Source: an uncultured Methanosarcinaceae archaeon (GTDB taxonomy: Archaea > Halobacteriota > Methanosarcinia > Methanosarcinales > Methanosarcinaceae). Taken from it: DNA of 64,000 nucleotides. Numbering within the stretch: position 1 is the stretch's first letter; the number at the start of each line of letters is the position of its first letter. The notes under the pieces were generated by a model, which saw only the letters and a list, made by a program, of their open reading frames with translations, made no database searches and was not told the DNA's origin. This document shows, piece after piece, positions 1,215-16,938 of this stretch. The stretch lies in contig CAVSHT010000008.1 in NCBI GenBank assembly GCA_963727895.1, positions 128,001-192,000 on the forward strand, written 5' to 3'. Position numbers and translations under genes: made by a program.

Positions 1215-1296
1215 AACTAATATTAACTTCTCTTTGTTAAAATTTTCATAACCATTTTGTTTACGAACTCATAACCCCACCTACTATTCTATTTTT

Positions 1297-1446
1297 GGTT
1301 CCGTTGCAAAAATAATATTTCTGCATTTTGACACTATAATTCTCACTTATATGTATCATTTTTCTGGTGATTAGATAAATTAACTTTCCTAATTGTGAAG
1401 GTTTTCACTTATTTTGTAAAATAGCCAGATTTTTTGAACCCGAACC
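1297..1446. mobile_element. IS6-family-derived MITE (150 bp)
   Basis: Starts ggttccgttgcaaaaa, identical to the IR of the IS6 at 14568. Ends in the degenerate IR ttttttgaacccgaacc. No coding capacity. Confidence 0.75.
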
Positions 1447-1567
1447 GCCGTCACTATACTATAAGTTTTAATGATTTTGGCATCATTAGAGCCTAGTTAT
1501 ACTGCCATTTAGATGAATTGTTCATATTTTTCCACGTTACTACTCCAGAAAAAGTCAATTTACGATT

Positions 1568-2314
1568 TTAGGATGACTTACCCTGTCCGTGTCCCATCAT
1601 AGTTGTCAGTTTAGGGTCAATCACACGTATCTCGTACTCGTCTGATTCGAAGGCTTTCATTGCAGGCTGGACGAACTCTATGGTCGTAATACCAAAATAA
1701 GTCTGTCCCCTGGCTTTCCTTGCACCCTTATCGAGGTTTGTATCTACCATAGGGGGAATTAGTTCGAATACTTTAACAGTCGTTCCTTCCAGTTGCTGCC
1801 TGAGCAAGATGCTGAGCATATGAACAGCCGCCTTGGTCGCACAATAAACAGGAAGAATTGGCATCGGATGAAATGCAAGCCCAGAAGAAACGTTCATAAT
1901 TGCGGCTTCTTTTTGCTTCATCAGGTGTGGGGTAAAGAGTGCTGTCATATAAACGAGAGATCTGAAATTTACCTCTATCTCATCTTCTCCATCCGCCGTC
2001 CATTGCTTGGTAAGATCCTCAGTTCCTTTTTTGAAGTCGATCATACGCTGAATGCCAGCATTATTTATTAAGATGTTCAGGTTTTTGAAATTAGAAGTTG
2101 CCCAGGTATACAATTCCTCACATTCCGATTCTTTAGAAATATCGCACTTCCTGACATACAGATGAGGGATTTTTTCCTTAGCTTGCTTCAGGTTCTCCTC
2201 GGTCCTTGAACAGACGATGACCTCACTACCTGCTTTGACAAAAGCTTCTGCCAGAGCTAAACCAATACCAGTCGCTCCGCCAGTGATCAATATTGTATTT
2301 CGACTCGTTCTCAT
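1568..2314 (-). CDS. Short-chain dehydrogenase/reductase (DltE-like)
   Basis: TGGATGIG Rossmann motif, NNAG, YCATK catalytic motif. Start placed at the ATG after SD-like gagtga. Confidence 0.9.
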   Translation of the reverse strand: MRTSRNTILITGGATGIGLALAEAFVKAGSEVIVCSRTEENLKQAKEKIPHLYVRKCDISKESECEELYTWATSNFKNLNILINNAGIQRMIDFKKGTEDLTKQWTADGEDEIEVNFRSLVYMTALFTPHLMKQKEAAIMNVSSGLAFHPMPILPVYCATKAAVHMLSILLRQQLEGTTVKVFELIPPMVDTNLDKGARKARGQTYFGITTIEFVQPAMKAFESDEYEIRVIDPKLTTMMGHGQGKSS

Positions 2315-2648
2315 ATATTTCACTCGATGTTACACTATTAATAGTGTAGAACTTACGTATTATTACAAAAGAAGTACACAGTTATATATACAGTACTCCG
2401 CTAAAAATCCCTTTTCTATGCTTTCCCTGGTGATTTACTTTAGAGCTTGTCTTAAAATTCATTCTCATATATATTGAGTTTCGCTATTCTTCTAACCATT
2501 ATGCGAATGATGATGAATTTTAAGATACGCTCTTATTCATTCGATGTAAGGTGTTTTTGTAAGAAGTGACTTTGGTAATTAGCAACGCCTGTCAAATTAA
2601 GGTTTTAAATCAATATTTATTTAAAGCATCTTGCTAATCACTCATGGC

Positions 2649-3692
2649 ATGGAAACCACTGAACCCTCATCTTCTTTTGCAAAAAACTCATCTTTTGCAA
2701 CAAATATATCCCACGTTAATAGTGGAATAGAGCAGGTGTTTACCTGGTTTTCAGACAATTTCGGCACACTTTTGTTCATACTTTTCATTGGTTTGATAAC
2801 CGTCCTTATTGCAAGGAATATAAACCGTCTTATGGAAAGCTACTTCAAAAAAGCAAGCGGCAAGCTGCGAATGGACACAACGTCTTTTCGAATGTTTAGA
2901 CATATTGTTGTCGCACTAATCTATTTTATGGGAATTATCGCTGTTGTTTTCAGTATTCCAAGTCTTCGAAGCCTCTCGGTCGCCCTCTTTACAGGAGCAG
3001 GAATTGCCGGTATAGTTCTCGGTTTTGCAGCTCAGAATACACTGAGCAATATAATTGCAGGACTTTCTCTTGCCATATTTCAACCTTTCAGGGTTGGAGA
3101 TCGGCTTAATATCATGAATGAATACGGAAAAGTTACAGATCTTAACCTTCGGCACACTGTCATTATAACCTGGGATAACAGGCGACTTATAATACCCAAC
3201 TCTGTAATCAGCAATGAAGCAATAATTAATTGGACTATAGAAGACCCTGCGGTAATATGGCCAATCGATGTTGGAATAAGCTATGATGCCGATATAGACC
3301 AGGCAAGAAAAATCATGATAGAAGAAGCAAGAAAAAATCCCAATGTAATGCCTCCGCAGGAAGTTCAGTATAGTGTTGTAAAACCTAGCTTAATTAAATC
3401 CGAAACATTGAATATGGGATTTTTTGACTCTCCTGTACTTCATCCAGTTGACCCGGATTTCAGGGAAAGAGGAGAGGTTAAAGTAAACGTTGTTGAATTA
3501 GGAGATTACGCTGTACAACTCCGTCTGAATGTCTGGTTCAAAGACAGGAGCATTGCACACAGTTCAGGATGTGAAATTAGGGAAGCTATTAAAAAACGTT
3601 TTGATAAGGAAGGAATAGAAATTCCTTACCCATATAGAACTATTGTGTATAAAACTGATATTGAAAAAGAGAAGAAGGATACTAAAAAATGA
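2649..3692 (+). CDS. mscS: Small-conductance mechanosensitive channel
   Basis: Three N-terminal TM segments, GFAAQNTLSNIIAG, PFRVGD, IPNS, and C-terminal GIEIPYP. Confidence 0.9.
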   Translation: METTEPSSSFAKNSSFATNISHVNSGIEQVFTWFSDNFGTLLFILFIGLITVLIARNINRLMESYFKKASGKLRMDTTSFRMFRHIVVALIYFMGIIAVVFSIPSLRSLSVALFTGAGIAGIVLGFAAQNTLSNIIAGLSLAIFQPFRVGDRLNIMNEYGKVTDLNLRHTVIITWDNRRLIIPNSVISNEAIINWTIEDPAVIWPIDVGISYDADIDQARKIMIEEARKNPNVMPPQEVQYSVVKPSLIKSETLNMGFFDSPVLHPVDPDFRERGEVKVNVVELGDYAVQLRLNVWFKDRSIAHSSGCEIREAIKKRFDKEGIEIPYPYRTIVYKTDIEKEKKDTKK

Positions 3693-3946
3693 TCCCATAC
3701 AGAGAGATAAAATTAGTACGCTGTAAAATGCCAATTAGATACAATTATTTTGCCTATCTATAATTAGGACATACAGATTAGGACATACAGCATTTAAATT
3801 AATTTAGAAAATTATACACAGGTATTTTATTTTTTAAAAGTATCAGTGGCTAACGAGATTATCATAAATTAAAGTTGTGCTGGCGCACCCCGCAGCAAGC
3901 CAAGGATATTCGACTGAAATAAAAATCAATTTATAGGAATAATCTT

Positions 3947-5263
3947 ATGGCCTTACCTCCACTAAAAGAACGAACTTTTGGGTATGAATTTTCAGGGAGT
4001 GAACATAAACTTATTTTTGAAAAAGAAAATATTGGTTATGTTCGGTACAAAAATAAAGCCGCTAAAATTTTTTATCTTGATCCTTCTCCTTATTATAATG
4101 ATCCCAGAAATCAGATCTATACTGTAAAAAGTGGGTCTTTGCCTCCAGACGGACAATTAATTGAGGTAAATGTTACAGAAACTGAAAAACTTCGTATAAC
4201 CTCAAATGATTATGATAAAACCTTTAAATCTACAAAAAAACCTCTTGCTTGGGCAGCACAAACCCAGAATAATATTTACACCACAAATATCAAGTATGTG
4301 GTTGGTTGGAATTTGGTAAATCCTAATAAAATTCGAAGTAATAATCTAACGAGTAAGGATGATTTTTTGGAGTTTTTATCAATTCCAATAAAAAATAAAA
4401 TTTTGGATATTGAAGACTTGCAATATAGTCTGGGAATGTGTGCAGTCTCAGCTCCTCAAATTACTGACCTTGAAAAAGGTGGGGTAAATACAATAGTACT
4501 GGATAAAAATTATGATTCAATGAAATGGGCTGCCTTCAAACGAATTATGAGTATTGTTCCGCGTGAATTTAAACAGCCTGCCTCAAAAAACTTTTATGAA
4601 TACCTTACAACCAGTGAACAGCCTTATCCGACAGCCAGTATTGAGGTTAACTTGTCTTATTTTAATATACAGGATGTACCCATTCATCTCCCAATTCCTT
4701 TTGACATGGAATTCAAAACTCTTGGGGAATATAAAGAGAGTTTTGATCATTATCTTCCTCTGGCAAGAGCCTATATGATTGATTCTCTGTTATTTCAGCC
4801 ATATATTCCTGAGAAAATCGAAAAACGTATGGAAGAAGCAATGTACTTCATTTTAGATGATATTTCTTCTACCGGCATAATTCCCTACTATCAGGATATA
4901 GGTTCAGTCATCCCGAAATTAGCCACTTCTTTTGCAAGACTCAATTTTGATTCCTGGATTTCTTATAGAGATCTGGACAAAAGTAAAGGAATCTGGATTG
5001 ATCTTGTGACTGAAGCCAGGAATACCACAGATTCTACAAGGACTCGAAGTACAGATAAGCTTTACCAGTTGACACCAGATGCAGAAAAGCTACTGAAGGA
5101 ATTAAATGAACTGGAAGATGCAGGTATTCCTCTCCTTATAACCACCATCAAGGAAAAAACTTCATTAATAGAATGGAATTTTGAGAACGCCCTGAAAAAA
5201 TTAAAAATCTGTGGATATGTCTATTTCCCAAATAATGAAAGGATAGGGCTTATCCACTACTAA
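3947..5263 (+). CDS. Hypothetical protein with MCM-lid-like and C-terminal winged-helix-like segments
   Basis: 438-aa ORF followed by a T-tract. The MCM resemblance is by eye only (see findings). Confidence 0.75.
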   Translation: MALPPLKERTFGYEFSGSEHKLIFEKENIGYVRYKNKAAKIFYLDPSPYYNDPRNQIYTVKSGSLPPDGQLIEVNVTETEKLRITSNDYDKTFKSTKKPLAWAAQTQNNIYTTNIKYVVGWNLVNPNKIRSNNLTSKDDFLEFLSIPIKNKILDIEDLQYSLGMCAVSAPQITDLEKGGVNTIVLDKNYDSMKWAAFKRIMSIVPREFKQPASKNFYEYLTTSEQPYPTASIEVNLSYFNIQDVPIHLPIPFDMEFKTLGEYKESFDHYLPLARAYMIDSLLFQPYIPEKIEKRMEEAMYFILDDISSTGIIPYYQDIGSVIPKLATSFARLNFDSWISYRDLDKSKGIWIDLVTEARNTTDSTRTRSTDKLYQLTPDAEKLLKELNELEDAGIPLLITTIKEKTSLIEWNFENALKKLKICGYVYFPNNERIGLIHY

Positions 5264-11904: not shown

Positions 11905-12336
11905 TTGGTTGGCATAATTGCTTTTGTTTATACCCGATGGAATCAACTTCCTTCACAAATCCCTGGGCACTATAACGCAATGGGAAAAATCGATAGATGG
12001 GGAAGTAAAAATGAAATACTCATAACGCCAATAATAGGTACTTTAGTTTACATATTCATAACTGTTATGTCCTTTTTTCCGCAAACCTGGAATTTATCTA
12101 TACAAGTAACAGATGAAAACAGGGAAACAGTGTATAGCTATGCAAAAAATTTGATAATACTCACAAAAGTAGAAGTATTGAGCATATTTTTTTATCTAAC
12201 TTATTATATGGCAACAACGCAGCCTTTGCCCATAGCTTTTTTGCCTGTTTCGATGATAATCTTATTTTCCACAATAATATTCTTCACTGTGAAAATCTAT
12301 AGATCCGGAACTAGAAAAAAGCAAACATCAAATTGA
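11905..12336 (+). CDS. DUF1648-family membrane protein
   Basis: WNQLPSQIPGHYNAMGKIDRWGSK motif and several TM segments. The frame is open upstream to an ATC at 11848 behind an SD-like aggaag, so the true start may have mutated. Confidence 0.8.
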   Translation: MVGIIAFVYTRWNQLPSQIPGHYNAMGKIDRWGSKNEILITPIIGTLVYIFITVMSFFPQTWNLSIQVTDENRETVYSYAKNLIILTKVEVLSIFFYLTYYMATTQPLPIAFLPVSMIILFSTIIFFTVKIYRSGTRKKQTSN

Positions 12337-12479
12337 TCCAAAAATCAACTTTATTCTCAAGTCACTATTTTGTAGAGTTTTCTATGATCAGAATTTATGA
12401 ACCTGACAGGAATCATAATTGCTCAAAGTAAAACAATTTACCGGAAAATATTTTTACAATTCGCATTATTGTTTGATTC

Positions 12480-12743
12480 ATGAATCAAGAAAATAAAACG
12501 ATAGTTAACGCAGATAAGAGTCGTGAATTTGGAGCAATGGGAGAGCTCTTAAGAGAACTTCAGAAAGAAGAAATGGAACCAATTGAAACATCAGCTGTAG
12601 AAACCCCAGAAGAAAAGATAATCTCAGAAGAAAACATAAACCAAAACATGGTCATGTTAATAACAGAAATCAATGAATCATTAAAAGAAATTACAGAGAT
12701 GCAGAAAAGTATACTGGAAGAGTTAAAACGCAGACCTATTTAA
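12480..12743 (+). CDS. Small acidic coiled-coil hypothetical protein
   Basis: 87-aa ATG ORF with protein-like composition. Confidence 0.6.
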   Translation: MNQENKTIVNADKSREFGAMGELLRELQKEEMEPIETSAVETPEEKIISEENINQNMVMLITEINESLKEITEMQKSILEELKRRPI

Positions 12744-12827
12744 AAAGGATTTGAGAGCAATCTTTTAGGGAGAAAGCTTTACCAAATATTCTAAGTGGAA
12801 ATGCAAGCCTTTTCAAAAAAAATAAAA

Positions 12828-13072
12828 GGTATTGATACTTAAACATAGTTATATGTTATTAGAAAGTATATTTCTTCATGAACTGCCCCAGATACAATAG
12901 TTCCAGTCACAAAAAGAACGGTATAGTTGGTGGGCGTTAACGGTACAAATGCTCTGATTGTGGCTATAACTATACAGTAGAGCTAAAATCAACTGCTTTT
13001 TCCGCTTCTGTAAAAAGACAGGCTTTACAACTCTATCTTGAAGGATTGGGCTTTCGCTCAATAGGACGATTT
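12828..13072 (+). mobile_element. IS1-family 5' fragment, interrupted by IS110
   Basis: Left IR ggtattgatactta. Colinear with the other IS1 copies up to caataggacgattt. Confidence 0.9.
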
Positions 13073-13100
13073 AGCATGAAAGTACATGAGGAGATTATCC

Positions 13101-14365
13101 TCACGTGCTCTCTTGATCCTTTTTCCCCATAATCGCAAATATTCCACTAATTATTTTAATCCGTTCATCAACCTAAAAAATCTCAGTTTCAATAATCTTT
13201 CTCTTTTGGATTTCTCCCTTTTGATATCCGGTTTCATCTTCGTCCATCTCATCGTTTGTAATAAGATGCCATAGTATCGTTGCAATTTTCCTTGCTAAGG
13301 CAATAATTGTTTTTGCATGTCCAATCGACTTCTTTTTTCTGTTAAAAAACTCTTTTAACCTGCTATTCTTCTTTCTTGCTGCTGCTTGAGCAATCTGTGT
13401 CAGAATCCACCTTGCTACTTTTGATCCCCTCTTTGTGATTCTGCCGTTATAGTATTTATCTGCAGATTGATACACATTAGGAACTAGACCAAGCCAAGAA
13501 GCAAGCTTATTTCCAGAAGAAAAATCCTTAAAGTTGCCTATTTCAGCAAGTAAAATTGCCGCACCAAGTTCCCCTATACTTGGAACTGACATTAAAATCT
13601 CCATTTCTCGCTTATGATTTCGAGAAGCATAATTAAAAATTTCTTTTTCTAAAGCTTCGAGTTCATCATCAAGACTTTTTATGAGTTTCAGACAGATCTG
13701 AAGTCTGAATGCAGCACTTTGAGAAATTTCTCGATCAAGAATTTCTCTTATCTGAGCAGCTTTTTTCCGAACATTTGGAGAGAGGCTTGCAATAATCTGA
13801 CCAACACTCTTACCTAAAGAGATTCCTAATAAGATCATTCTGCCATTCTTGCCAAAAACGTCTGTCGGCACATTATTCAGGTGTAGCATTTCAGATGCAA
13901 GAATTGAATTTCAGATGCAAGAATTGAGTGAGCTTTATTTTTTAAATCTGTTCTTTTTTGTACAAGTGTTAACCGAAGTCGAACATATGATCTAAAATCT
14001 ATATGATCCTTTGGGAAAACTCTTGATGGCTGAATCATATTATTAAGTGCAAGTTGTGCAATGACTTCTGAGTCAATCTTATCTGTTTTTTTATGGGTAA
14101 ATACCTTCATATCTCGCGCATTTCCAACTATCACAGTTAGATGCTTTATCAATGAATCATGAATCGGAACCCAAAAGTAGCTGGTTGATTCACATGCAAC
14201 AACATCACATTTTTCTGATATTACCCAATTTTTAAGGGCTAAAATTCCTTCATCATCTCTGTTGAAACGTTGCTGTTGTTTTTCACCAGATCTACTGAAA
14301 ATTGTAGCAATGAAAAAGAGTTTGTGAATGTCTAAACCACAAGCTTTGTTTATGACTTCAATCAA
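13101..14365 (-). pseudogene. IS110-family transposase/recombinase, frameshifted
   Basis: GLDIHK, ACESTS and KTDKID (D-E-D-D); GLVPNVYQSAD...GRITKRG. A 20-bp tandem duplication (13888-13927) shifts the frame. In-frame TAG at 13173, with the frame open on to TGA at 13101. Confidence 0.9.
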
Positions 14366-14384
14366 ATTAGATCACCAAATTTAT

Positions 14385-14518
14385 TTGGGCAGTGGAATTG
14401 CCTAAAAGGCCAATTTAGCATCCGTGATCAAAGTCACACTTGAGCCTTCGATGGCAATTCACTGATTAGTTTTAGGACGGTTTTGAAAAACCAAAATCGA
14501 GACAACCTTACTGCCCAA
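14385..14518 (-). ncRNA. Candidate IS110 bridge RNA
   Basis: Structured non-coding region upstream of the transposase, with two hairpin-capped loops whose unpaired strands match the insertion site and the element end. Confidence 0.7.
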
Positions 14519-14567
14519 GGTAATGAGGACTTAATAGTCAAAAAAAAGAACGGAGAGTACTTTCATT

Positions 14568-15424
14568 GGTTCCGTTGCAAAAAATATCTGCTAAGGATAT
14601 AATTAAAATAAAAATGAAATCAAAGATAGTGATATGCTATCTAATTCCTTTAAATGGAAGCACTTTGTAGGTGAAATTATTTTATTGAATGTTAGATGGT
14701 ACTTAAAATACCCACTTAGTTATAGAAATTTAAAGGAAATGATGGCAGAAAGAGGGATAATAGTCAACCATACAACCATTATGAGATGGGTACATCAATA
14801 TTCACCTGAAATCGAAAAGAAGGTCAGAAGGCATTTAAGACCAACAAACGACTCTTGGAGAGTTGATGAAACTTATATCAGAGTTAAAGGTGAATGGAAA
14901 TATTTTTACCGAGCAGTTGACTCAAATGGAGATACAATTGATTTCATGTTAAGTGCAAAACGAAATAAAAAAGCAGCGAACAGATTCTTCAAAAAAGCTT
15001 TGAACTCTAATCATAATCAAATTCCAAGAGTAATCACAGTTGACAAAAATCCAGCTTATCCACCTGCTATAGATAAACTGAAAAATGATAAAATACTACC
15101 TATAAACGTAGGCATTCGACAAATCAAATATTTGAATAACATTATAGAACAGGATCATAGATCCATTAAACGAATAGTTAATCCAATGTTAGGATTTCAG
15201 TCTTTTCATACAGCCATTAAAACTTTAAAAGGAATTGAAACTATGAATATGATTAAAAAAGGACAAATCAAGAACTTAAATTACTCTGGCTTTAATGAAG
15301 CTAAATATATTAATCAATTATTTGGAATAGTTCTATAATATTGACATATCTTTTTGAATATTTTAACTTTTATTCATTATTCATAGATTTACAGGCTTAT
15401 TCTAAGATTTTTTGCAACGGAACC
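14568..15424 (+). mobile_element. IS6-family element (857 bp)
   Basis: Perfect 18-bp IRs ggttccgttgcaaaaaat around an intact transposase. No TSD. Confidence 0.95.
14634..15338 (+). CDS. IS6-family DDE transposase
   Basis: SWRVDETY, YRAVD, ITVDKNPAY, LNNIIEQDHR. Confidence 0.95.
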   Translation: MLSNSFKWKHFVGEIILLNVRWYLKYPLSYRNLKEMMAERGIIVNHTTIMRWVHQYSPEIEKKVRRHLRPTNDSWRVDETYIRVKGEWKYFYRAVDSNGDTIDFMLSAKRNKKAANRFFKKALNSNHNQIPRVITVDKNPAYPPAIDKLKNDKILPINVGIRQIKYLNNIIEQDHRSIKRIVNPMLGFQSFHTAIKTLKGIETMNMIKKGQIKNLNYSGFNEAKYINQLFGIVL

Positions 15425-15517
15425 TTCTATGGAGTTCCATAGAACGTCATCGATTTCACGGACTGACATATAAGTAAATTTATAATTTCAACAGAATATT
15501 ACTTTCGGGATAGGCTC

Positions 15518-15561
15518 TAATATAAATTAGTATTTAATATAAATTAGTATTTAATATAAAT
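15518..15561. repeat. 17-bp tandem repeat (about 2.6 copies)
   Basis: taatataaattagtatt twice, plus taatataaat. Confidence 0.85.
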
Positions 15562-15627
15562 GTATAACAATTTAAATATTCTAAAGACTACAAACAGCTT
15601 TATGTTAGTCCAACCAATATCTCTAAA

Positions 15628-16938
15628 ATGTCATATTTGCTTGAGATTGCAATCGTCCTTTTATTGATCGCACTCAATGGCATATTTTCCATGTCAGAAT
15701 TTGCTCTAGTTTCTGCCAAAAAAACTCGTCTCAAGCATAGGGCGGAAAGCGGGGATCTACAGGCAGCTGCTGCACTTAAACTCACCAGTGATCCAACTCC
15801 GTTTCTATCTACTGTGCAAATCGAAATCACCCTTATTGGAATCTTTGCTTGTGCGTTTGGCGGGGGTCACCATATCAGAAGAATTTTCAGCTTACCTTGG
15901 AAAATTCCATGCTCTTTCTCCGTACAGTAATGCGATAAGTATTACTCTTGTAGTACTCTTAATTACCTATTTGACCTTAGTTTTTGGAGAACTTGTTCCA
16001 AAAAGACTTGCACTTAATAATGCGGAATCAATTGCCTCCAGCATGCAAAACCTATGTTTTTTCTTTCTGTTCTAGTAAAGCCTTTTGTGATAATTCTTAG
16101 CAGTTCTACCGAAGCTGTGCTCGGGATCATGAAAGTTAGAAAGTCTCATGAACCGCCGGTAACAGAAGAGGAAATTAAAATTCTATTTGAGGAAGGAACT
16201 AAAGCTGGGATGTTTGAGAAAGCTGAGTTGAGTATGATAGAAGATGTTCTTGAAATTGGTGATCTTCGAGTTGATAGCCTGATGACACATCGCAATACTA
16301 TCACTGCTATTGACCTTGGAGATCCTATTAATAAAAGTATGTGGAATATAATTGAAAGTGGTCGATCCAATTTTCCAGCGTATGAGGAAGTTTTGGACAA
16401 TATTATCGGTATGATATCTGTAAGAAAAGTCCTTGAGAAATTTGTGGAAAGTGGTACAGTTAATTTCAAAGAACTTGTTACACAACCCCTCTTTGTACCT
16501 AAAAGCGCTTCAGTTCTTAAGCTTCTTGAATCGTTCAAGGAGACTGGAGTGCATATCGCTCTTATCACTCATGAATATGGAAGCATTCAAGGTGTTATTA
16601 CGCTGCATGATATTCTTGAAGCGATTGTAGGCGAAATCCGTTCTCTTGGGGAGCCTGTGGAGACAAAGGTTCAGGTTCGAGAAGACGGTTCCTGGCTCAT
16701 CGATGGAGATACACCCATTGAAAAGATTAAAGATATCTTATCTGTAACTTCCTTTCCTGGAGAAGGACTTGGATATTACCGGACTATTGCCGGGCTGATA
16801 ATTTTCCTCCTTCAGAAAATCCCTGCAACTGGAGACCATATAATATTAGGGGAATTTCGGTATGAGGTTGTCGATATGGATGGTAATCGAGTAGATAAAG
16901 TTCTTGTAACACGAGTTTCAATAGTTTCCAAAAGTTAA
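15628..16938 (+). pseudogene. HlyC/CorC (CNNM-CBS-CorC) family transporter, two frameshifts
   Basis: NGIFSMSEFALVS, FGELVPKRLA, CBS pair and VDMDGNRVDKV are split over three ORFs. Extra G near 15862 and a missing base near 16044. Confidence 0.85.

Follow-up and report, generated by a model that had tools for sequence, protein, structure and literature searches.

The guide logic of the insertion sequence (IS) IS621, including its handshake guides, has been set out in two papers (PMC11208160, PMC11208158; for these and the other papers cited below, we refer to the parts that treat guides, ends and distribution). In IS621, the 5' strand of a loop pairs with the bottom DNA strand and the 3' strand with the top strand, the RNA is encoded in a long left end (LE), and the subterminal repeats measure 2-3 bp (PMC11208160). 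In IS1111 types, the match to the top strand precedes that to the bottom strand, the repeats measure 7-17 bp, the RNA lies downstream and the transposase has 330-350 aa (Siddiquee 2024, PMC11187229), with a few exceptions, listed in the cited parts with no analysis of their guides, that carry the non-coding region (NCR) upstream (ISMtsp17) or on both sides (ISHvo10, ISAcp5). The same paper reports that recognition of the ends requires the target halves beside them, and that ISEc21, a member of the IS110 family, inserts in transposase genes of the IS3 family (PMC11187229). Archaeal IS110 recombinases number 662 in one account (10.1101/2024.06.21.599552), and the Methanosarcina entries ISMac14, ISMba7, ISMba20 and ISMma5 of ISfinder fall into one 30%-identity cluster (Durrant supplementary table, PMC11208160). 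A literature search for an account of a bridge RNA from archaea or from Methanosarcina found none; the IS621 and IS1111 papers also have supplementary figures and PDF tables that may bear on this point. Here we describe an IS110-family element at positions 13073-14567 (minus strand) of a 64,000-nucleotide (nt) stretch of archaeal DNA, called the window below, together with its copies in the same genome and its relatives elsewhere.

We consider it highly probable that this sequence is a copy of a methanogen IS110-family IS that is moved by RNA-guided, site-specific recombination catalysed by a DEDD recombinase. The host is a methanogenic archaeon: its genome (G000; 3.67 Mb, 36.6% G+C, 84% complete) matches the archaeal small-subunit (SSU) rRNA model at 1548 bits and contains mcrA. 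An earlier reading of the window, made from the sequence only, had called the element an archaeal member of the IS110 family, and this is borne out by the SSU rRNA, by mcrA and by relatives in Methanosarcina, Methanospirillum, Methanoculleus and Methanoperedens. All sequences quoted in that reading, namely an outer stem, two loops, cgattt at 13067-13072 and the junction ATTTAGCAT at 13069-13077, were found where it had placed them.

Proposed guide strands and their DNA partners

The element ends were set by comparing 24 left and 24 right ends from the genome (left and right as in the window), with differing flanks. The left boundary is identical in all 24 copies (...TTT|AGCATGAAAGTAC), while the DNA to its left is IS1 in 16 of them and unrelated in 8. 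On the right, only the window copy stops at 14567. The other 23 extend 34 nt further (agttgtgcttgttattcgaagaaaagcatgtgcg), reaching ...CATGT(G/A)(C/T)G and then TTTTAG(G/A/T) in 21 of 23 cases or TTGTAGG in 2. The usual transposase-proximal end of these copies reads ...GCATGTGCG, and two diverged copies end in ...catgtatg or ...catgtgtg. The end predicted by the sequence-only reading for the missing part, ...cattcaagt, was wrong: all 23 other copies go from ...CATT to the 34-nt extension and then into the T run. The window copy, whose boundaries follow from this comparison, is truncated and lacks those last 34 nt of its transposase-proximal tip. Insertion is site-specific, and the 24 left and 23 right flanks show no duplication beyond a short shared core, which is taken, by analogy alone, to be the dinucleotide AA/TT.

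In transposase orientation, the LE measures 202 nt in the window copy and, with the additional 34 nt, approximately 236 nt in intact copies, and is longer than the right end (RE), a 100-nt non-coding end 3' of the transposase gene (13073-13172, minus strand). As described below, loop 2 reads the RE tip, AGCAT (13073-13077), with its 3' strand. Both ends carry a subterminal inverted repeat, and the RE copy (ATGAAAGTAC, 13076-13085), located 3 nt from the tip, matches the LE copy (GTACTTTCAT, 14557-14566) at 10/10 positions. The LE copy lies 35 nt from the tip in intact copies. The sequence of the subterminal repeat varies among families, yet it is inverted at both ends throughout.

The upstream non-coding end folds into a three-way junction (bridge/seekRNA core, 14385-14518, minus strand) that scores 172 bits with the covariance model R1 (see below). 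It is closed by an outer stem of 9 bp, in which ttgggcagt (14385-14393) pairs with actgcccaa (14510-14518), and the stem encloses two arms, each consisting of an internal loop and a hairpin cap. Loop 1, read on the minus strand from 14499 to 14470, is CGAUUUU-GGUUUUUCAAAACC-GU-CCUAAAA. Loop 2 (14443-14413) reads UCAAG-UGUGA CUUUGA UCACG-G-AUGCUAAAU. In agreement with the sequence-only reading, the target loop is the 5' one of the two and the donor loop the 3' one.

The 3' strand of loop 1 (CCUAAAA plus C, 14469-14476, minus strand) is identical to the upstream flank and core. Compared with the 7 nt upstream of the element, it scores 6.50/7 against the cognate flank versus 4.31 against non-cognate flanks (24 loci), and in a larger set single positions of this strand are identical to the flank in 29, 27 and 27 of 31 loci. 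Loop columns 73-74 take eight dinucleotide states, each matched by its own flank, in 16/16 families. In all families, the final C that follows the strand is also the base with which the LE begins. The 5' strand of loop 1 (UCUCGAUUUU, 14493-14502, minus strand) is complementary to the core and the downstream flank, AAAATCG in transposase orientation. For this strand, the fixed register was replaced by one anchored at the end of the A run, which gave 3.13/5 for cognate versus 1.66 for non-cognate downstream flanks (23 loci); 0/5000 permutations reached the total. In M. spelaei, 13 distinct downstream flanks yield the consensus AAATAAg, which fits AAAATAAGG, the reverse complement of the guide.

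The 3' strand of loop 2 (AUGCUAAAUU, 14412-14421, minus strand) comprises AUGCU, corresponding to the RE tip, the core AA and then AU, the first bases of the downstream flank, in a handshake-like arrangement. Its match to RE tip plus core is 6.79/7 for cognate versus 5.40 for non-cognate pairs and is perfect over 7 nt in 17 of 19 loci, which upholds the proposal that this strand reads the transposase-distal tip. The trailing bases are AU in the window element and GU in the Methanoperedens element, the latter fitting its flank AAGT; each 3' strand, in loop 1 as in loop 2, ends with 1-2 bases that fit the non-cognate partner. Diverged copies in the genome carry AUGUCAA, and there is a fragment with the tip GACAT that possibly belongs to the same subfamily (78% identical over the end probe).

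The fold was assessed in an alignment (A1) of 18 related RNAs from methanogens, taken from upstream regions of relatives that align with that of the window element. A six-helix structure of 37 pairs has 87.8% of its cells paired, versus 30-52% when partners are slid. Double changes occur in 14 of the 37 pairs, and the observed score was reached by 0/500 shuffles. Frequent G-U pairs, such as that of columns 38/80 in 17 of 18 rows, are compatible with the transposase strand only. The covariance model built from A1 (R1) gave 43 matches. It detects the RNA in 25 of 151 genomes sampled from the order, and in 9 of 12 within the genus; one genome, G140, carries 18 copies of the family. None of the sequencing runs contained more than 0.10 of the sampled words. 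Contigs from RNA libraries (four runs of four studies) that are 85-99% identical to the element, and hence come from relatives, span the recombinase gene as well as the non-coding end. Over 14425-14526, short contigs have a greater depth than the contig of the recombinase, at 112 versus 6.1 in one run (X6) and 1216-4146 versus 763 in another (X4), which is no more than a weak hint of RNA expression.

We propose that the long upstream non-coding end would encode an RNA of approximately 135-150 nt on the transposase strand, consisting of the outer stem and two arms with an internal loop each. The 5' strand of loop 1 (CGAUUUU) would pair with the transposase-sense strand of the core and downstream flank, and its 3' strand (CCUAAAA) with the opposite strand of the upstream flank and core. 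Together, these strands may specify a target close to CCTAA-AA-ATCG, that is CGAT-TT-TTAGG on the plus strand of the window, an 11-mer nearly unique to IS1 in this genome. The 3' strand of loop 2 (AUGCU-AA) is predicted to pair with the transposase-distal tip and the core, and the one or two further bases with which each 3' strand fits its non-cognate partner recall the handshake guides of IS621. It is presumed that the host transcribes the RNA, that the recombinase binds it and that a circular intermediate exists. If formed, the circular junction would be expected to read ...GCATGTGCG-T(2-3)-AGCATGAAAG...; searching the assembly for a circle-junction or tandem-copy sequence gave 0 matches.

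The IS1 segment that borders the element occurs 231 times in the genome, interrupted at the IS110 site in 16 copies and uninterrupted in 215. The 11-mer CGATTTTTAGG has 48 genomic sites, 46 of them within IS1. The target of about CGATT/TTAGG in IS1 given by the sequence-only reading is supported by these counts, and TTTTAGG indeed follows the site in the three intact IS1 copies inside the window (AGAGTTTTAGG; C8 138718, 148615 and 169868). Occupied IS1 sites include CGAT, TGAT, AGAT and AGAG variants, and this variety indicates that insertion happened more than once. In the non-IS1 flanks, which are found on both sides of three copies and on one side of eight, the conserved part shrinks to (A/G)TTT | TTAG(G).

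Among approximately 21 complete IS110 copies, IS1 is present on both sides in 10, on the left only in 4, on the right only in 4 and on neither side in 3 (e.g. C3:275983, C9:234248, C4:393025, C5:290078). The equal counts of half-IS1 junctions suggest reciprocal exchanges, that is inversions or translocations, between IS110 copies.

Weighing the guide assignment against its rivals

Several observations weigh against the assignment of guides given above. The 5' strand of loop 2 (UCAAG, 14439-14443, minus strand), whose letters recur in the end predicted by the sequence-only reading, showed neither a match nor covariation with the LE tip, and no DNA partner was found for it. Compared with the complement of the core and LE start at all offsets, it scored 2.62 for cognate and 2.85 for non-cognate pairs. 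Nor does any RNA column track the LE tip (CGCACATG...): mutual information with LE positions 1-12, in 16 and then in 31 loci, gave clade-level signals only and no diagonal. Because the strand holds no LE-tip complement and no column tracks that tip, the element either lacks one of the four guides by which a bridge RNA is defined or has it in a cryptic form. Covariation between loops and DNA, proposed earlier as a check, was found for three of the four loop strands, which track a flank or tip, and for the 5' strand of loop 2 it was absent. By eye, no covariation was seen in the stretch that separates the outer stem from the subterminal repeat, in the hairpin loops or in a possible GUGUG:CGCAC pairing, which would open the loop 2 hairpin. 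One further candidate was dropped: in clade L100-L108, the 5' strand of loop 2 (AUGAGU) resembles LE positions 6-11, and the G/A variation of the RNA is not mirrored in the DNA.

The other adverse points concern single guides, the core and the RNA as a whole. In a fixed register, the pairing of the loop 1 5' strand is short and weak (6.0/9 versus 5.24). The RE tips of two loci, L020 and L040, conflict with their own loop 2. The T runs at the junctions do not sum uniformly (3 or 4 on the left, 4 on the right), so that the exact position of the core within the T run is not placeable; errors in homopolymer length in the assembly could be the cause. As a single sequence, the RNA folds weakly (z = -2.4; 4 of 200 shuffles do equally well), and a scan of 12000-16000 at E <= 1 returned no Rfam 15 match for the element. 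Contigs from RNA libraries cannot reveal transcript ends, strand or level. Finally, IS1-embedded copies need not be independent: IS1 may have copied IS1::IS110 composites, and the 16 occupied sites are accordingly an upper bound on independent events.

L020 and L040 look like chimeras, or recombinants, between subfamilies. L020 (G000:C4:52543) combines an RE of the main type with an RNA end of the variant type, and on its right it is flanked by the end of an IS6-like element, the sequence of which fits the variant guide ACUAAAA.

The missing guide to the LE tip is what would be expected of a seekRNA in the narrow sense, in which only the loop 1 guides act, on the target and on the target halves on either side of the donor, while the second arm serves as a scaffold for protein binding and the recombinase recognises the ends by way of the subterminal repeats. 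Such a role would agree with the 10-bp repeats being kept inverted while their sequence changes between families, as well as with the stress that Siddiquee 2024 lays on flanking target halves for end recognition (PMC11187229). A pure scaffold, however, would not track the ends as the 3' strand of loop 2 does, with at least five RE tips followed (GCT, GCC, GTT, GTC, GGA, AGA, AGG) and the perfect matches in 17/19 loci. We regard this alternative as improbable.

It is very unlikely that the RNA is a canonical bridge RNA of the IS621 kind and that the swap of strands is an artefact of mis-set ends or orientation. The RNA does lie upstream of the recombinase gene, the LE of intact copies (~236 nt) does exceed the RE (100 nt), and the target loop does precede the donor loop, but the ends are fixed by 24 copies with different flanks. 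Moreover, the 5' strand is complementary and the 3' strand identical to the top strand in every family tested, the opposite of IS621 (PMC11208160), and the subterminal repeat is 10 bp long, not 2-3 bp. Least credible of all is that there is no guide RNA and that the non-coding end is a promoter or 5' untranslated region that resembles flanks and tips by chance or because end sequences were once nested or duplicated: the modest single-sequence fold, the short, A/T-rich guides and the lack of an Rfam match would suit this, whereas the compensatory changes in 14/37 pairs, the eight flank-matched dinucleotide states of columns 73-74 (16/16) and the permutation test (0/5000) speak against it.

Recombinase, element copies and neighbourhood

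The recombinase gene of the window copy is split. ORF1 (162 aa, 13877-14365, minus strand) encodes the N-terminal DEDD, RuvC-like half (PF01548, 72 bits), and ORF2 (238 aa, 13173-13889, minus strand) the C-terminal Tnp half (PF02371, 90.7 bits), starting at a native internal methionine, Met153. The split is due to a 20-nt tandem duplication (2 x atttcagatgcaagaattga, 13888-13927), and copies accordingly measure ~1605 nt with it and ~1585 nt without it. It costs no residues: ORF1 ends just past residue 152, ORF2 starts at Met153, and the two overlap by 13 nt. The duplication is present in 16 of 20 copies, in 8 of which both halves are open; the RNA-library contigs of relatives are without the extra 20 nt. 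The sole unsplit intact gene (L016:1601-2773, minus strand) encodes a protein of 390 aa whose score with the model NF033542, 'IS110 family RNA-guided transposase', is 261 bits (cut-off, 140). For the split copies there are two options: mobilisation in trans, or a recombinase that works in two pieces.

The genome contains 21 near-full IS110 copies and several fragments. With its LE tip gone and its recombinase gene split, the window copy cannot move; the family is recent and abundant in this genome even though this copy is dead. Relatives of the recombinase occur in Methanosarcina (71-84% identity, fragments up to 94%), Methanospirillum and Methanoculleus (54%), Methanoperedens (41%) and a few bacterial bins. 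Its motif reads GLVPNVYQS(T/A), where the IS1111 motif is GL-P----S(t)G. A search of plasmid annotations matched 1875 records, nearly all of them named only 'IS110 family transposase', and so yielded no tree with labelled subgroups. A CATGAGG...CCTCATG hairpin is present in both subfamilies at different ends: in the LE tip region in the Methanospirillum type (L059-L063) and, in the Methanosarcina type, immediately inward of the subterminal repeat of the RE. In a circular form, each of these places would be close to the junction.

To the left of the element lies the left part of an IS1 copy (12824-13072, plus strand), interrupted at the target site ...ggaCGATTT; this flank is common to 13 other copies (from query position 152-169 onward), and its T run at 13070-13072 includes the shared core. 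To the right, an IS6-family element (14568-15424, plus strand) with perfect 18-bp terminal repeats (14568-14585 and 15407-15424) encodes a transposase (14634-15338; PF13610, 156.7 bits). The IS6 element cut away the LE tip of the IS110 element together with the right half of IS1, and downstream of its end at 15424 neither of these was found. The genome is saturated with ISs: besides the 231 occurrences of the IS1 segment, 400 nt of the neighbouring IS6 element give dozens of matches at 86-100% identity. Just right of the IS6 element, 15453-15528 on the minus strand gives a sub-threshold match to a C/D-box small nucleolar RNA (SNORD50, 27.7 bits against a gathering score of 42, E = 0.011), which could be chance or an archaeal C/D-box small RNA. 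A short direct repeat (aatataaattagtattt, two copies) lies at about 15515-15563, in an A/T-rich spacer ahead of the next gene.

Relation to described IS110 and IS1111 systems

The guide-flank code of this family can be read from genomes. With about 22 copies in one genome and relatives in 25 of 151 genomes of the order, the family offers a natural data set for a mesophilic archaeal bridge RNA. Its hybrid features bear on how the IS110 and IS1111 layouts interconverted and on how donor ends are recognised when subterminal repeats are long. One transposon here relies mainly on another, IS1 with its 231 copies, for places to insert, and harm to the host is thereby limited. The known mechanism is unchanged by these findings, and their practical value lies in a new compact pair of archaeal recombinase (390 aa) and RNA.

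A bolder reading, which we think rather doubtful, is that the methanogen IS110 elements represent a third architecture of bridge recombinases. Their cassette would be inverted relative to the recombination frame, with an upstream RNA, IS1111 polarity and long repeats; the RNA would carry three guides only, the RNA-proximal tip being read by protein or repeats; and the recombinase split into RuvC and Tnp parts (16/20 copies) would still transpose. If this were true, the IS110 and IS1111 groups would have a living intermediate in this lineage.

With IS621 and the IS110 group (Durrant 2024, Hiraizumi 2024), the element shares a recombinase with DEDD and Tnp parts and an RNA encoded in a long LE upstream of the gene. 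As in IS621, the RNA has a 5' target and a 3' donor internal loop, the two strands of the target loop match opposite strands of the DNA, with an overlap at the core dinucleotide, and extra bases matching the non-cognate partner resemble handshake guides. In contrast to IS621, the guide order is mirrored, the 5' strand pairing with the top strand here and with the bottom strand in IS621, in all families tested; the sequence-only reading had noted this opposite order correctly. The IS621 recombinase has 326 aa. That of the present element has 390 aa, and the element further departs from IS621 in its 10-bp repeats (versus 2-3 bp), its presumed AA/TT core (versus CT), the lack of a recognisable fourth guide and the lack of an Rfam match.

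Like the IS1111 group (ISEc11, ISKpn4, ISPa11), the element has its top-strand match 5' of the bottom-strand match. Its repeats likewise fall within 7-17 bp and are placed asymmetrically, close to one tip but tens of nt away from the other, which is the one at the RNA end. It differs from the IS1111 group, as characterised in the cited parts of that work, in an RNA that is upstream and not downstream, in a long LE combined with a short RE and in the length of its transposase (390 versus 330-350 aa). The element resembles ISEc21 in being an RNA-guided IS that favours a site in the transposase gene of another abundant IS family. The IS so used is IS1 here and IS3 in the case of ISEc21, which is bacterial and has the canonical IS110 guide order. 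Reversed guides, subterminal repeats and the targeting of an IS, all brought out in the sequence-only reading, are present but were overstated there, as all three are on record in the cited parts of PMC11187229 for IS1111 types or ISEc21. With the IS1111 polarity, the upstream exceptions and ISEc21 already published, neither the polarity nor the idea of a parasite of a transposon is new.

The ISfinder entries ISMac14, ISMba7, ISMba20 and ISMma5 come from the same genus-level hosts, and the representative of their cluster in the supplementary table has, by eye, about half its residues in common with the window recombinase. Set beside this cluster through that one representative, the window recombinase probably belongs to it. 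The layout of the element is a hybrid, with the guide order and 10-bp repeats of the IS1111 group and the RNA position of the IS110 group: a mostly published pattern in a new combination.

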